Shown: piece by piece, positions 3,105 through 32,786 of the stretch
Numbering within the stretch: position 1 is the stretch's first letter
How the letters are laid out: every line of letters begins with the position of its first letter
IMG/VR virus record: IMGVR_UViG_3300039076_000025
Location: 1 to 32,786 of that record
Source of the DNA: a virus
Taxonomy: Duplodnaviria; Caudoviricetes
DNA length: 32,786 nucleotides
Reading direction: 5' to 3' (one strand)
Position numbers and translations under genes: made by a program
Notes under the pieces: model-generated
Told to the model about the DNA's origin: nothing
What the model saw: the letters and a program-made list of their open reading frames with translations, nothing else
Database searches by the model: none

Positions 3105-4259
3105 GTATCTGCCCGTTCCTGACTTAAAATCAAACTTGCGCCATGCTAATGCTAAAGCGCATACGCAGTCATCCGTAAAACCAGTTGGTGCGGAATACTT
3201 TACTCCGTGTGATGTGTATTGATACTCGAAAACTTCTAATTCATTCTTAATCATTCCTTCGGGATAATGCACCCGTTCCTGATGTATTGCCACTTGAAGT
3301 CCAAGCATTAATTCTTGCTTGCTTTGTGATGTAAACTTAAAGCCTTCAATGTCCATGCCTTCTCGTTGTAATTGTTCGACTATCGGGTCACCTACTCCAG
3401 TACTATCAATTAACATCGGTGCTTTTGGACAATTGCGTAAAATGTTCTGAGTTGATGCCCAATCTTTCTGAAATCGGTCATAGTAAGCCACATTGCCACT
3501 ATTATCTAAACCGATAATGACCGTCCAATCTGAATACTTTGCCAAATCGACTCCGTAACATTTAACAATATTAGTAGAAATGTCCGATGTACATTTACTT
3601 ATTGCCTCGCTTCCAAAAGGATTTGCAGCGTTCTCAGCTGGGTTAGCCATGTACTCTTGCTCGAATACTACGGGAATTGCTGACTTCTTAATTGAATCGA
3701 CTTCGGAATTTGCAATATATGGATTATCGTAAGTCGAATATTTAAACGATTCCCATTCTCCGTTTGCTTCTAATCCTTTTAAATATAAAGAATAGAAATA
3801 ATTCTTGCCTCTCGGAGTCGATAGAAATAGCGCCTTGCCTTTATAATCGGTTAAGGTAGGTCTTATAGCATTATTCCAACCGTTCTCTAAATCGGGAATA
3901 TATGAAGCCTCATCAATAATCACATAGTGAAATCGCATACCTCGAAGATTGTCTAATCTTTCGCCCGTATAAAATCGAATGACTCCACCCGTAGACAATT
4001 TGAAAGTTAAATCTGATATGTTAGAAGTTGCTACTTCGGGCGGAAGTATTAAAGCAATATCGTCAAAAAAGACTTTGGCTAATTTATAAGTCGGAGTTAT
4101 ATAAGCAACTGACTTGCCTTGTAATGCCTCTACGCAAGTTATGACCTGGCTAATCAATGACTTGCCAAATCTTCGCCCGCACATAAGCACTCTAAACCTC
4201 GCCTTGCTCTGTAATACTTTCTTCTGCGCCTCGTGTGGAGTCGGTAGGATAATCTCCAT
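3093..4259 (-). CDS. terL: Terminase large subunit
   Basis: Walker A GRRFGKS, Walker B VIIDEA, coupling motif STP, nuclease GVD..., C-terminal DDCVCALALA; likely start is MEIILPTPH at 4259. Confidence 0.95.
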   Translation of the reverse strand: MEIILPTPHEAQKKVLQSKARFRVLMCGRRFGKSLISQVITCVEALQGKSVAYITPTYKLAKVFFDDIALILPPEVATSNISDLTFKLSTGGVIRFYTGERLDNLRGMRFHYVIIDEASYIPDLENGWNNAIRPTLTDYKGKALFLSTPRGKNYFYSLYLKGLEANGEWESFKYSTYDNPYIANSEVDSIKKSAIPVVFEQEYMANPAENAANPFGSEAISKCTSDISTNIVKCYGVDLAKYSDWTVIIGLDNSGNVAYYDRFQKDWASTQNILRNCPKAPMLIDSTGVGDPIVEQLQREGMDIEGFKFTSQSKQELMLGLQVAIHQERVHYPEGMIKNELEVFEYQYTSHGVKYSAPTGFTDDCVCALALAWRKFDFKSGTGRYNFV

Positions 4260-8381: not shown

Positions 8382-8560
8382 TTGTTTGTTTGGTAAATTT
8401 CATCTTGGACAACACTCCAGTAAGCACGGTCATCTGCCTTTAGTTTTTGCTCAAGAATTAATGAACAAAAGTACAAAGCTAATTCGAAAGCAAATGCTTT
8501 ATTGCCACAAAAATAAAGGGCATTAATTAACAAACTTTTAGCTTTCTCATCAGGCTTCAT
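8378..8560 (-). CDS. Hypothetical protein
   Basis: 60-aa ORF, translationally coupled. Confidence 0.55.
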   Translation of the reverse strand: MKPDEKAKSLLINALYFCGNKAFAFELALYFCSLILEQKLKADDRAYWSVVQDEIYQTNK

Positions 8561-9062
8561 CCCTTATTTTCTTTTTAATGTTTGAAATCGTTTTGACAAT
8601 AGACATATACGGAATGCCAGTCTTTCTTGAAATCTCGGTTTGATTAAAATTTAATTCGACATAAGTATCGAGCAACATATCTTCGTACCAGCTTAATCCT
8701 TTCCTTGCCTTTTCTACCTTGTTGTAAAGACCTTCTTTGTAATCCTTAGAGTAATCCTCTATTTGAACCAATTCTTCAATGCCATCAAGACATTCATACT
8801 TTGCTCTAAAGTGCCTAAAGAATGGCTGATTCATGCCAGTGCTATAAATCATATTAAGCATACACCTGACTAACCAATATTTTAAACCACTCGTTCCGTT
8901 GTTATTATAAATAGACCAAAACTTCTCATCTGAAATCGAGCAAAGATTCACAAACATTTCTTGTTTTAATTCTTCCCTTAAATTTGCTGGGTGCATTTTC
9001 ATCAAGGCTTGCTTAATCTCCTTTGAATTATAAAGTTCCTCAATGATTTGCGACCTGGTCAT
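8550..9062 (-). CDS. Sigma-70/ECF-like transcription factor, probable late-gene regulator
   Basis: Region-2-like REELKQEMFVNL...YWLVR and region-4 HTH NQTEISRKTGIPYMSIVKTISNIKKKI. Confidence 0.75.
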   Translation of the reverse strand: MTRSQIIEELYNSKEIKQALMKMHPANLREELKQEMFVNLCSISDEKFWSIYNNNGTSGLKYWLVRCMLNMIYSTGMNQPFFRHFRAKYECLDGIEELVQIEDYSKDYKEGLYNKVEKARKGLSWYEDMLLDTYVELNFNQTEISRKTGIPYMSIVKTISNIKKKIRDEA

Positions 9063-10111: not shown

Positions 10112-10321
10112 TCAATTTTCTTTAACGTTATATTTTAGTCTTCCGTGACTTGTGTATAACCTTAAATCTATCGTATCGGTGTAAATATCCTCAGATTCGG
10201 AAATTCCGAATACCCACTTTGGCTTATTATTTTTTTGTATTGTCTGATTATTTTTCAGCGCATAATAATAAGCATAGCAAATTAATGCCAGCGCAGTTCC
10301 GTAAATTAGTTTTCTTTTCAT
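10112..10321 (-). CDS. Hypothetical protein with N-terminal membrane anchor
   Basis: MKRK followed by hydrophobic LIYGTALALICYAYYYAL. Confidence 0.55.
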   Translation of the reverse strand: MKRKLIYGTALALICYAYYYALKNNQTIQKNNKPKWVFGISESEDIYTDTIDLRLYTSHGRLKYNVKEN

Positions 10322-11067
10322 AATTCGTTTGGTTTAATAGTTCCATCATTATCGATATGACAATCAAATGTAACTAAAGAATTGATAAATTTAATATACC
10401 CTTGAGTTTTGCAGTGCATTTTTCGTTCTTTAACATCTTGAATATTAGAATATTTATTCCAAAGTTCAATTCGTTCTTCTTTTGATATGGTTGGAATCTT
10501 AAATTGTTCCATGTAATCGAATAAGATTGACAAACCTCCAGCAATAAACGTAAATTTCTTATCGTTCTTCTCGCAGAATCTTATCTGATTTGCATATTCA
10601 TTGGCAGTATCAATTGCTTGCTTCATTAATTCTTGGTCACTTGGTTTTTCTTTCACTGGCTCTATTGGTTTAGGTAAATATTTAATCTCTTCTTTTACAT
10701 AATCATTATAAGCATTCATAATCCTTCCAAAGTATTCACATGAGAAATTCTCATAACATTTAGAATCAATGTTTAATTTCTGAGCGACTGCCATTTCAAA
10801 GGCAAGTTTTATTTCTTCGCAAGTATTATTTCCAAAATTAAATTTTACAAAATTAGTTAAAACAAATTTTTCTTCTTCAGTCGGTAGATTGCTTCCTCGT
10901 AAGCCAACCAAAAGCATAGAGTAGCGTAATGCTTGCTTTATATCTTCTTCGTTCCTTACACGCAAAGTAATGGCGCTTTGTGCTTGTTTTATTGCTAAGG
11001 CATTACCACTTCCGTAATGCTTCCATTCTTGCGGCACTTGTTCCAAGTTTCTCAGTTGTATTTCCAT
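10318..11067 (-). CDS. Hypothetical replication-associated protein (possible helicase loader)
   Basis: Follows the initiator; EEIKLAFEMAV...YENFSCEYFGRIMNAY motif; start uncertain. Confidence 0.45.
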   Translation of the reverse strand: MEIQLRNLEQVPQEWKHYGSGNALAIKQAQSAITLRVRNEEDIKQALRYSMLLVGLRGSNLPTEEEKFVLTNFVKFNFGNNTCEEIKLAFEMAVAQKLNIDSKCYENFSCEYFGRIMNAYNDYVKEEIKYLPKPIEPVKEKPSDQELMKQAIDTANEYANQIRFCEKNDKKFTFIAGGLSILFDYMEQFKIPTISKEERIELWNKYSNIQDVKERKMHCKTQGYIKFINSLVTFDCHIDNDGTIKPNEL

Positions 11068-11659
11068 TGTTGTTAAATTTGGTTTTATTATTTATCCAAG
11101 TATTTATTCTTCTTTCAATATTAAAGAATTTTTCTAACTCCCATCTTTCCTTTCCTGATTTATTTTGTTCAGTCCAGTAAGAATAAAAATTATCGTATTC
11201 ATCTCCTAAAAGAAAAATGTGAGGAGTTATTATATCTATTAACTTTACTTTACTTTCATTTACTTTACTTTCTTTTACTTTATCAGCGTTACGAACAAGT
11301 TCTGAACGTGTTACATTTTCGCTAACTAATTGATTTTCACGCCATTCTAAAATTCGTTTTGCATTTTTTTCTTTTGAAACTTGATACTTTTTGCTAAAGT
11401 TTAGCAATTGTTTGTTAAAAGTTTCTCCATTATTTGAAGAAATCAAATCAATTTGCTCAATAAACTCCCAAACTTTGTCTAATTTTTTGCCAACATTTAA
11501 CTGATGTTTAAGAACTTTTGTCTTAATTGGCTTCTCTTGTAAAGCAAGTTTTTCTAAAATAGTATAGAATAATCCAAGACCTTCATACCCATACTCAAGA
11601 TACAATTCAGTTATCTTTTCGTCATTGAATGAATTAGAATCGTGTAGGTAATATTTCAT
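11003..11659 (-). CDS. Replication initiator-like protein (Lin1244/DUF4373-type N-terminus)
   Basis: YYLHDSNSFNDEKI..L...YGYEGLGLFYTILEKL; KVKESKVNESKVK linker; C-terminal FYSYW...W..ERRINTW domain. Confidence 0.75.
   Translation of the reverse strand: MKYYLHDSNSFNDEKITELYLEYGYEGLGLFYTILEKLALQEKPIKTKVLKHQLNVGKKLDKVWEFIEQIDLISSNNGETFNKQLLNFSKKYQVSKEKNAKRILEWRENQLVSENVTRSELVRNADKVKESKVNESKVKLIDIITPHIFLLGDEYDNFYSYWTEQNKSGKERWELEKFFNIERRINTWINNKTKFNNNGNTTEKLGTSAARMEALRKW
11242..11281. repeat. TTTAC-rich tandem tract inside the initiator gene, possible origin element
   Basis: actttactttactttcatttactttactttcttttacttt; lambdoid initiator genes often carry their own origin. Confidence 0.4.
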
Positions 11660-11669
11660 TTTATAAAAT

Positions 11670-11709
11670 AAAAAAAAGCCAGTCTGCGTCGGAGTGCAAA
11701 ACTGGCTTT
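11670..11709 (-). terminator. Intrinsic terminator/attenuator just upstream of the initiator start
   Basis: AAAGCCAGU-UUUGC-[ACUCCGAC]-GCAG-ACUGGCUUU followed by a U run. Confidence 0.8.
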
Positions 11710-11760
11710 GGTTATTTAACCTATTAAATTACCCAAGAACTCCGACCCTCTTGGTTAATT
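11670..11760 (-). ncRNA. Structured leader RNA with predicted kissing loops
   Basis: Hairpin 11727-11760 has loop GUCGGAGU, the reverse complement of terminator loop ACUCCGAC (11688-11695). Confidence 0.65.
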
Positions 11761-11766
11761 ATATCA

Positions 11767-11796
11767 CAATATATAAAATTTAATTTGACTTACAAA
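11767..11796 (-). promoter_or_regulatory. Possible Bacteroidota -33/-7 promoter
   Basis: TTTG-N19-TATATTG (imperfect TAnnTTTG); puts +1 at the start of the leader hairpin. Confidence 0.4.
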
Positions 11797-12046
11797 GTCT
11801 TTTAAGAAAATAACCAGCATAAATCGGATGGTCGTTTTCAAATAACCTGGCATAGTCAGAAGTATAATTATTATTGACCTTGTAGCCATCATTTCCTTCG
11901 ACCATTGTGTGCCATCGGATAACTTCAAAGATTTGTTTTGCTCCAAGCCTTACATATCCTCGATTGATTAGTTGGTATGCCAAGCGCTTAAACTCCCGAT
12001 AAATTTCGGGATTCTCTTCGTGATACTTTTTGAAACTTGTTTTCAT
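11780..12046 (-). CDS. Conserved phage hypothetical protein
   Basis: FKKYHEENPEIY..F...GAKQIFEVIRW...KVNNNYTSDYARLF pattern. Confidence 0.65.
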   Translation of the reverse strand: MKTSFKKYHEENPEIYREFKRLAYQLINRGYVRLGAKQIFEVIRWHTMVEGNDGYKVNNNYTSDYARLFENDHPIYAGYFLKRLCKSN

Positions 12047-14385: not shown

Positions 14386-14393
14386 CAAATATA
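14386..14393 (-). promoter_or_regulatory. Bacteroidota-type -7 promoter element (early promoter)
   Basis: TATATTTG matches TAnnTTTG; AT-rich upstream region; 22 nt before the ATG. Confidence 0.7.
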
Positions 14394-14469: not shown

Positions 14470-14506
14470 AAAACAAAAATCCCCACCGATATGACCGATA
14501 GGGATT
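14470..14506 (-). terminator. Intrinsic terminator ending the late region
   Basis: AAUCCCUAUCGGU-CAU-AUCGGUGGGGAUU followed by UUUGUUUU. Confidence 0.8.
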
Positions 14507-14543
14507 CTATTACTTAAACCTATTTAACTATGAAAACACAAAC

Positions 14544-30956: not shown

Positions 30957-32786
30957 TTAACTTGGATAAAATAATTCAATTACTCTTAACAATTCACATT
31001 TGGTTGTTTTAGAAATACTCGGATTAAAATCAATTACTTTATTTAATCTCCATAATGCGCCATCAATATAAATCAGTTGAGCAAAGTCAAGTGAATAAAT
31101 ATCTTGTACGGTTAAGTATAAATAGCAACTTAATAGCTTACTATCTTTGTTTATAATTTCGGCTAAATATTCATCCCACCAAGAATTAAATAAATTAGCC
31201 GTTGGATATGGATTTAATAAAGTAAAATAAAATTCATTTGGCACTCCAAAATTAATGTCAATTGTTGGTAGTTCAGGGTCATCTAAATGCCCAGCATATC
31301 CGTAGCTTGTTCTTACCCCTCCGTAATTACCATTGCCTGGATTGCCTAACTCTGGGTCATAATAATGTTTAATATTATAATTTGGACTTGAAACACTTTT
31401 AAAAATCATTATTCGGATATTGTTATCCTTTCGTTCTTCAACTCCGTTAGATTCTTTAAATAAATTTGCTCTTAATTTTGTATCAGTTGCATCTTTAGTT
31501 AATACGCTTGGACTAAAAATTACTTTTATTTCCGTTCTATCCTCAGCAAATTGGAAACCCGTATCTTCTTTTCTATCGCCATACGATTCATTGTATTTTT
31601 TTCTATATGCCTCGTTATAATAATCATCATCCTCAGTATAAACATAATCGTAATACCTTGCATTTAATTCCGACATTGGCTTAATAGAAATCTCTTTTGA
31701 ATAATCTAATTTATTCGACCAATCAATTGAAGAAGCAACTGGGTCAGATAACAAAAGTAAACCCGTAGCATCTCCAGTTTCCCCATGCAATAGTAATTCG
31801 CCAACATCATTTACTTTTAAGAACCCAGCACCTTTACGATAAAATTCTATGTATGGCTCAATTAATAAATGAGTCGTAATTTGTGGGTCTTCATAAACAT
31901 ATAAATTAAACATTCGACAAATTGAAGCAAAAAAGTCTTTTTGTTGAATGCCTTTAGGTAAACAATTCCCCATTGAAATTAAAACTCCTTCGGTTGCTAA
32001 TGCAACTTGGGGATAATCAGAAATAAATGATAAATATAAATTAGGGTCTAAAGTAACATATGTTTCGCTTGCCGTAAATGAAGCATCAATATTAATAATA
32101 TTGCCTACTCCTAATGTAGCATCAATAAGCCAATCAATATTATAAATTTGATTATCAACGTCAGGTTCAAAAGTTTCCGTATATAATAAAGTTGCGGACT
32201 GATAAACCGATAAAATAAAAGTACCTGGTCTTGATAATGATATTGTTCCATTAAGCCTTATTTTACCAAGTGTTGAAACTGTGCCAGCAAAAGTAAAAGA
32301 CTGATTTGTTGAATCTTTTGTAAAATTTATTAAATTAATTATTGTATTAAAAGCTAAAGTACCTCCAGCACTTGTATTTGCTCCGCCATCTAAAGCATTA
32401 TTACCATAAACTAATAATAAATCCTTAGTCAATTGCTCAAGATTAGCCTTATTATTAGGTATTATTAAACTTCTAAAATAAGGCGTGTCAAAAAAGGCAG
32501 AAGTATACGTGTAACCTGAAAAATCAATTATTTTATCAATTAATTCGTGAACGAAAAATGCTGGTCTAAAAGCATTTAAATGCCAATCATCTCCTGAATA
32601 ATTAGCTGGATGTCTACATAGTCCGTAATCAATTAAAGGATATACAATACCTACTCCACTTGCCACACCTGAAGCAGTCCAAGAATTAACAATATTTTCA
32701 GCAGTCCATAATTGGTCATAAGCATCAGAAAAATGACCAAACATATCAGGTTCATTTAATAGCTTATTACCTATTGCGGAGGCAAA
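30957..32786 (-). CDS. C-terminal part of the junction-spanning tail tip protein
   Basis: Continuous frame from 497; YPLIDYG, MFNLY and WRLNKVIDFNP...KCELLR motifs. Confidence 0.8.
   Translation of the reverse strand, partial: FASAIGNKLLNEPDMFGHFSDAYDQLWTAENIVNSWTASGVASGVGIVYPLIDYGLCRHPANYSGDDWHLNAFRPAFFVHELIDKIIDFSGYTYTSAFFDTPYFRSLIIPNNKANLEQLTKDLLLVYGNNALDGGANTSAGGTLAFNTIINLINFTKDSTNQSFTFAGTVSTLGKIRLNGTISLSRPGTFILSVYQSATLLYTETFEPDVDNQIYNIDWLIDATLGVGNIINIDASFTASETYVTLDPNLYLSFISDYPQVALATEGVLISMGNCLPKGIQQKDFFASICRMFNLYVYEDPQITTHLLIEPYIEFYRKGAGFLKVNDVGELLLHGETGDATGLLLLSDPVASSIDWSNKLDYSKEISIKPMSELNARYYDYVYTEDDDYYNEAYRKKYNESYGDRKEDTGFQFAEDRTEIKVIFSPSVLTKDATDTKLRANLFKESNGVEERKDNNIRIMIFKSVSSPNYNIKHYYDPELGNPGNGNYGGVRTSYGYAGHLDDPELPTIDINFGVPNEFYFTLLNPYPTANLFNSWWDEYLAEIINKDSKLLSCYLYLTVQDIYSLDFAQLIYIDGALWRLNKVIDFNPSISKTTKCELLRVIELFYPS
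32680..32786. repeat. Terminal direct repeat (copy 2)
   Basis: Identical to 1-107. Confidence 0.97.

Follow-up and report, generated by a model that had tools for sequence, protein, structure and literature searches.

What is the role of a short RNA with two mutually complementary hairpin loops that is encoded directly before the putative replication initiator gene of a freshwater phage? A preliminary description, made from the sequence alone, proposed that pairing between the loops controls read-through into the replication genes. Here, the leader was examined through its genomic context, its predicted fold, its conservation in homologous leaders and its likeness to known RNA control systems.

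Genomic context of the leader

The window, which denotes the whole analysed stretch of 32,786 nt, represents an entire phage genome, which was assembled as a circle and has a 107-nt terminal direct repeat (positions 1-107 and 32680-32786). All of its long genes lie on the minus strand, and Pfam and PHROG searches identified terminase, lysozyme, ERF and tail genes. The promoter type points to a host among the Bacteroidota. A search of genome contigs yielded seven loci, of which the two that fit the phage clade were both binned in Bacteroidota MAGs, a weak form of host evidence. Neither the 218-aa protein encoded after the leader nor the leader itself was found among the annotated phages searched.

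The preliminary description had placed the leader before a replication initiator. The genes that follow it, in the window and in relatives, are indeed initiator-like, while the identity of the 218-aa protein comes from family and context and not from a strong match. Besides its Pfam assignment (Table 1), this protein weakly matched PHROG 2562, annotated as 'replication initiation protein' (E 5.5e-5). Its structure model had a pLDDT of 66 and a pTM of 0.35, and a fold search with this model gave weak winged-helix matches, none at E<=0.001. Within the gene, A-rich repeats with a 15-nt period (KVKESKVNESKVK) were located at ~11238-11276 and are a candidate replication origin. Based on the protein family, these internal repeats and the gene context, the 218-aa protein is likely the replication initiator. 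The next gene encodes a 249-aa protein whose Atlas clusters consist of viral hypothetical proteins, with DUF6633 on 11% of one cluster; its position suggests that it is possibly a helicase-loader-like partner. Further downstream, a 170-aa protein (8550-9062, minus strand) weakly matched a phage sigma-factor family and is a possible late-gene activator, judging from this match.

In the loci examined, the leader heads the replication operon, and it keeps to this operon despite a change of initiator type or the insertion of HNH or small open reading frames. The genes after the leader in relatives encode Lin1244_N, HTH_36 or other initiator-like proteins, HNH proteins or small ORFs, and are not metabolic. 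Of 49 near-complete relatives, 39 had the leader as a single copy. Many relatives (L025, L034, L038, L073, L077 and L170) carry HNH endonuclease genes and small ORFs of unknown function between leader and initiator, which suggests an insertion hot spot.

Upstream of the leader, an exact TATATTTG box was observed at the head of the early operon, directly after a terminator-like hairpin (window 14386-14393 and 14476-14508, minus strand). A simple terminator scanner detected no further minus-strand terminator between the head of this operon and the leader; therefore, upstream transcription probably also reaches the terminator of the leader.

Architecture of the leader RNA

The leader RNA is ~90-93 nt long and is encoded on the minus strand directly upstream of the putative initiator gene. 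The two hairpins, the mini-hairpin between them and the gap of 10 nt from the U-tract to the initiator ATG (11659) were all recovered with the letters and coordinates first reported. The features are listed in Table 1.

Table 1. Features of the leader and its flanking genes in the window, with the swapped-word leaders of related loci.
Feature	Position	Strand	Description
Upstream ORF	11780..12046	-	phrog_13625, unknown function; last gene before the leader
-33 element TTTG	11793..11796	-	Bacteroidota-type, read from sequence; within 3' end of the upstream ORF
-7 element TATATTG	11767..11773	-	Degenerate
Hairpin 1	11727..11760	-	5 bp, conserved mismatch, 6-7 bp, 8-10 nt loop; from fold and alignments
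Hairpin-1 loop word GTCGGAGT	11746-11739	-	8 nt
Loop-1 word GUCGGAG	11740..11746	-	5' strand of the loop-loop helix; family pattern GU-N-R-N-AG
Mini-hairpin in linker	11710..11721	-	From fold
Hairpin 2	11675..11709	-	Terminator-type stem, internal loop, 3-bp apical stem, 8-nt loop; from fold and alignments
Hairpin-2 loop ACTCCGAC	11695-11688	-	8 nt
Loop-2 word CUCCGAC	11688..11694	-	3' strand of the loop-loop helix
U8 tract	11670..11677	-	Eight T, overlapping the stem base of hairpin 2; predicted termination site
Lin1244_N/DUF4373 protein	11003..11659	-	218 aa, putative replication initiator; Pfam PF14297, E 1.1e-5
Next gene	10318..11067	-	249 aa; no Pfam match
Swapped-word leaders	L443:1095-1189, L446:1091-1184, L460:1094-1187, L544:1101-1196, L633:1444-1536		

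The claim of a structured RNA of ~90 nt was corroborated by folding computations, in which the 91-nt RNA adopted the described fold at -28.9 kcal/mol (z -4.1) and none of 200 shuffled sequences was as stable. The G-C stem of hairpin 2 had a pair probability of ~1.0. With a G+C-rich stem that runs directly into a U-tract, this hairpin has the form of an intrinsic terminator, at which termination is predicted. The simple terminator scanner made no call at hairpin 2, which we attribute to its loop limit of 3-8 nt and to the internal loop of the hairpin. An architecture detector was positive at one of the 92 promoter-like boxes of the window, namely that of the leader, and at one of 300 shuffled leaders.

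The Bacteroidota promoter consensus is TTTG/TANNTTTG, and its -33 element is called weak, as outlined in PMC6847099. The degenerate promoter proposed at the base of hairpin 1 is present in the window as TATATTG, and an exact TAnnTTTG box lies 4-7 nt 5' of hairpin 1 in 48 of 86 homologues, so that the claim stands with the exact box in part of the family. Relative to hairpin 1, the columns at -37..-33 are T-rich and then G-enriched across the 86 homologues. Following the G-5 numbering as outlined in PMC6847099, the predicted +1 falls near 11762, at or just before hairpin 1.

Hairpin 2 carries the loop ACUCCGAC, to which GUCGGAGU in loop 1 is the reverse complement. The 8-nt loop-2 word has a further exact copy at 4090-4097 (minus strand), inside the terminase large-subunit gene; as a single extra copy in 33 kb, it may be due to chance.

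Conservation and covariation of the loops

Homologous loci were gathered with four initiator-type proteins and with DNA patterns. Generic terminator patterns returned mostly unrelated terminators, and the leaders of the family were sorted out afterwards. The first alignment comprised 38 leaders that were selected by motif and not by loop complementarity. In this alignment the loop-loop helix was 100% paired, with three of its seven pairs changing on both sides, compared to 35-53% in controls in which the words were slid. The stem of hairpin 1 was 98.5% paired, with 9 of 11 pairs changing on both sides. A covariance model was then built without the loop-loop pairs and gave 119 matches in 198 further loci and the window, among which the loop helix was again 100% paired; slid controls across three alignments reached 33-53%.

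Pooling yielded 157 rows, from which two truncated ones were removed and duplicates were collapsed to give 86 distinct cores. The 7-bp Watson-Crick helix between the loops is perfect in all 86. The loop-1 words fall into seven types, i.e. GUAGGAG (36 cores), GUGAGAG (31), GUGGUAG (6), GUCGGAG (5), GUCAGAG (4), GUGGAAG (3) and GUCGUAG (1). All 57 cores outside the training alignment are complementary, one new type being among them. Loop-loop covariation in homologous leaders, which the preliminary description had set as a test, was thus observed. That description had also reported complementarity over the entire 8-nt loop. This is exact in the window; only 39 of the 86 cores have a complementary eighth pair, and the conserved helix therefore amounts to 7 bp, of which four pairs are invariant and three vary. 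The ordinary stems are 96-98.5% paired compared to 100% for the loop helix, the terminator stem accounting for 96-98%.

Could the matching loops be a coincidence in an ordinary leaky terminator? The loop words are short, and under random re-pairing 31% of them would match. Against this figure stand 86 complementary cores in seven types, the slid controls given above and the shuffled controls of two detectors (1/300 and 2/270). On a tree built from the leaders with the loop words removed, which is short and partly unresolved, the loop type changed at least 11 times (the minimum possible being 6), and no mismatched intermediate was seen. Initiators identical at 215 of 218 aa carry different loop types. 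A chance origin is refuted for this leader family by the covariation, and we give it practically no credence; judged from the aligned sequences, the loop complementarity is beyond chance and the leader is a covarying RNA element.

Other features were also conserved. The mismatch in hairpin 1 is G.G in 65 of the 86 cores and A.G in 8, the GGT..ACC pattern of the mini-hairpin is kept in the linker of 80, and in 80 the 8 nt that follow the G-C stem include 7-8 T. The two loops are separated by 43-49 nt. All seven loop-1 words read GU-N-R, which is a weak lead towards a U-turn (YUNR) in loop 1. The purine in this pattern was forced by the first search pattern, a bias that the covariance model inherits, and a three-site leader family described below breaks the rule.

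Other leaders before related initiators

The leader family of the window was found at 168 of 272 initiator loci. At 77 of the 104 loci outside this family the first layout detector was negative; leaders of other families are visible at some of these, and others have none. Before related initiators, unrelated leaders of the same layout were identified that have swapped words, different words or a third copy of the word. In the swapped-word family, a CU..AC-type word comes first, in a 14-nt loop, and a GU..AG-type word occupies the terminator loop. Swapped-word leaders that were not selected for complementarity were complementary in 8 of 8 cases and represent two types; Rfam gave no match for the swapped-word loci scanned.

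In the three-site leaders (L062, L671, L691, L706 and L722), the loop-1 word occurs again 0-5 nt before the start codon. Within the 150 nt before the initiator ATG, this third word changes together with both loops. Further unrelated leaders (L044, L064, L047, L583, L595, L714, L715 and L696) combine a promoter, complementary words of 7-10 nt and a U-tract. In the metagenome set, a second detector was positive in 25 of all 54 leaders and in 22 of the 27 that have a -7 box, compared to 2 of 270 shuffles.

Searches for further pairing partners and a resident state

The preliminary description had suggested that the terminated RNA could act as an immunity RNA, an idea that lost ground. Tyrosine integrase was found in 0 of 49 genomes, and resolvase and ParA-type ATPase each in 0 of 50; HTH_3 occurred in only 5 of 50. 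With no integrase, resolvase or ParA found in ~50 genomes, a resident state to be regulated is not obvious, and a classical immunity role of the leader RNA is doubtful. A carrier state that does without these functions is possible.

For an antisense transcript, the primary-sigma boxes of Bacteroidota were searched from hairpin 1 to +60 after hairpin 2, and an antisense -7 box was found in only 3 of the 86 cores. A third pairing site was sought within -600/+900 nt of the leaders of the window's family, where no matching word was enriched; near the start codon, even a 5-mer of the own loop word was present in only 2 of 86. A downstream second target resembling seqC of phage P4 was found in the other, three-site family (L062, L691, L706 and L722).

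Comparison with known systems

Rfam 15 returned no match at the gathering threshold in the window and 24 related loci, in agreement with the initial view that the leader belongs to no described family; the best match by e-value at the locus scored 21.8 bits against a threshold of 70, which is at chance level.

The closest topology is that of the guanidine-IV riboswitch (GGAM-1 / mepA motif), in which the partner of the hairpin-1 loop is likewise the apical loop of the terminator hairpin. As outlined in PMC7736828 and PMC11611296, the kissing loop of guanidine-IV hinders the terminator stem from forming in full and gives read-through, and extension of the stem shortens the linker and displaces the kissing interaction. 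In contrast, the loop letters of the present leader vary and form no conserved pocket, and there is no Rfam match. Phage replication genes lie downstream here, whereas guanidine exporters (sugE-type) do so there.

In phage P4, the CI RNA derives from the leader of the replication operon and pairs with seqA and seqC of the same strand, which prematurely stops transcription of the replication genes (PMC4825925, in outline). The present leader shares with it the encoding of an RNA in the leader of a replication operon and the complementarity to an upstream site of the same strand. It differs in having two sites in the window's family rather than three, in being a putative primary terminated transcript rather than a processed RNA, and in lacking both an Rfam match and, in this phage clade, an integrase. 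The three-site relatives, which are outside the window's family, recall seqA/B/C of P4 with their third covarying site at the start codon.

In the IncI/IncB/IncK plasmids (ColIb-P9 pseudoknot versus Inc RNA) and in pT181, pairing of a leader loop governs initiator expression and the loop letters set the specificity, according to the outline in PMC10724649. Those systems require an antisense transcript, whereas no conserved antisense promoter was found here; moreover, IncI control is translational, and the pairing here is limited to 7-8 bp.

Among the RNA candidates of Fremin 2023 (PMC10690425), DNAVirus_4859, _704 and _187 from freshwater phages are tabulated within 25 bp upstream of DUF4373. 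DNAVirus_4859 is given as 106 nt long with 40 sequences and also occurs before HTH_36 and Phage_rep_O; 1-3 covarying bases and no terminator call are listed for the three candidates. The main text of that paper holds neither 'kissing' nor 'DUF4373' nor a loop-loop model. By its table description, one of these candidates, notably DNAVirus_4859, may be the same element. The alignments of Fremin 2023 and the supplement of Weinberg 2017 (PMC5737381) may bear on novelty. A literature search at abstract level, which covered few subscription journals, returned no description of the element and nothing on RNA control of replication genes in Bacteroidota phages. Taken as a whole, the leader is a real covarying RNA at the head of a phage replication operon and an apparently uncurated variant of known RNA attenuation mechanisms, with a well-supported structure and a function that we infer.

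Proposed mechanism and alternative explanations

On balance, the leader is probably a kissing-loop transcriptional attenuator placed before the replication genes. Loop 2, on leaving RNA polymerase, would pair with loop 1, and this kissing interaction would impede the closing of the terminator stem, so that read-through could proceed into the putative initiator and the genes downstream. In transcripts that miss the interaction, the U-tract would end transcription and a short RNA would be set free. Loop 2 of the released RNA could then occupy loop 1 of new transcripts and restore termination, and occupation in trans would thereby exert a type-specific negative feedback on the expression of the replication genes. 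What was observed is the sequence, the covariation and the gene context; promoter use, termination, the direction of the switch and trans action are our inferences.

The spacing of the elements bears on the direction of the switch. RNA polymerase has a footprint of ~14 nt. In all 86 cores, 9-12 nt lie between the end of loop 2 and the U-tract, so that loop 2 would emerge at the moment of the terminator decision, before the 3' arm of the terminator is free. With all stems formed, the unpaired linker measures only 3-8 nt in 84 of 86 cores, which by a rough estimate is too short for the kissing interaction and the full terminator to coexist; an opened terminator base would add, by a similarly rough estimate, ~11 nt of slack. 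Due to this linker limit and the arrangement known from guanidine-IV, the kissing interaction is read as the antiterminating state. Energetics count against the attenuator, as the terminated fold (~-29 kcal/mol) exceeds the loop-paired intermediate (~-19) in stability by ~10 kcal/mol, and so do the weak matches on which the identity of the initiator rests. For the partial transcript, the loop-paired structure ranked first in 48 of 86 cores, with variable inner helices. A dedicated antiterminator helix, formed by the 3' arm of hairpin 1 with the ACC-AAG stretch, was plausible in the window and was rejected, its register not being conserved in the 86 cores; the lack of a conserved helix of this kind also counts against the attenuator. 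Four of six RNA runs were inspected, and they consist of assembled contigs, few pieces of which cover the leader.

Within the attenuator model, the released terminated RNA is the likeliest input, with about an even chance; alternatively, the setting of the valve would be fixed, or would depend on transcription speed or on a protein. The variable loop letters make a metabolite input unlikely, and so does the lack of shared sequence among other leaders of the same slot. The dedicated promoter at the hairpin base, the switching of types and the three-site relatives were counted in favour of trans action. Two types make up 67 of the 86 cores, a modest diversity for an incompatibility code, and the 43-49 nt between the loops leave a short time window for binding in trans; both count against it, as do the missing third site in the window's family and, for classical immunity, the empty integrase, resolvase and ParA searches and the rarity of HTH_3.

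A different reading holds that the leader is a stand-alone stable small RNA, in which the kissing interaction compacts, protects or dimerises the molecule or even favours termination; the RNA would bind a protein or another RNA, and the initiator would be expressed by leakage through the terminator. The promoter at the base of hairpin 1 and the strong U-tract do delimit a discrete unit, the terminator fold prevails at equilibrium, and the G.G mismatch, the invariant G/U/A/G letters of the loop and the mini-hairpin are not accounted for by attenuation alone. However, the leader occurs once per genome and, in the loci examined, heads the replication operon; unrelated sequences of the same layout fill its slot, and no target word is enriched within -600/+900 nt. 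These points speak against a stand-alone RNA, and we regard this reading as unlikely, although it deserves to be kept in mind.

Two readings borrowed from known systems fare worse. Under control of the IncI/pT181 type, a countertranscript from the opposite strand would bind loop 1 and block the intramolecular pairing. The replication initiator downstream would suit such control, the variable loop letters recall incompatibility determinants, and competition between a pseudoknot and an antisense RNA is known for ColIb-P9 (PMC10724649, in outline); yet the near absence of an antisense -7 box of the Bacteroidota primary-sigma type (3/86), compared to the sense box in most cores, makes a countertranscript very improbable. 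The odds are similarly slim for a ligand-sensing riboswitch of the guanidine-IV kind, in which a small molecule or ion would stabilise the kissing interaction. Its topology is equal to that of the leader, and the four invariant loop pairs and the conserved G.G mismatch also speak for it, but three of the seven loop pairs vary freely, the other leaders of the same slot share no letters or swap their words, the downstream genes are not metabolic, and no Rfam riboswitch matched.

Implications

Little has been described on the RNA control of replication genes in Bacteroidota phages. The element is small and frequent in a clade of freshwater phages, and its natural compensatory variants make the mechanism directly testable. 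If the kissing interaction blocks termination without a ligand, the mechanism of guanidine-IV would be extended to a switch addressed by sequence. Should the terminated RNA act in trans, the leader would represent antisense-free copy control or phage-phage exclusion, and would further offer Bacteroidota genetics a ready-made set of orthogonal RNA valves. A broader proposal, which we put forward tentatively and consider rather less than probable, is that of a self-addressed RNA feedback widespread in Bacteroidota phages, in which kissing in cis turns the replication genes on and the terminated copy blocks it in trans via a 7-base address. If true, this circuit would give these phages copy-number control and type-specific interference during co-infection without a repressor, an integrase or an antisense gene.
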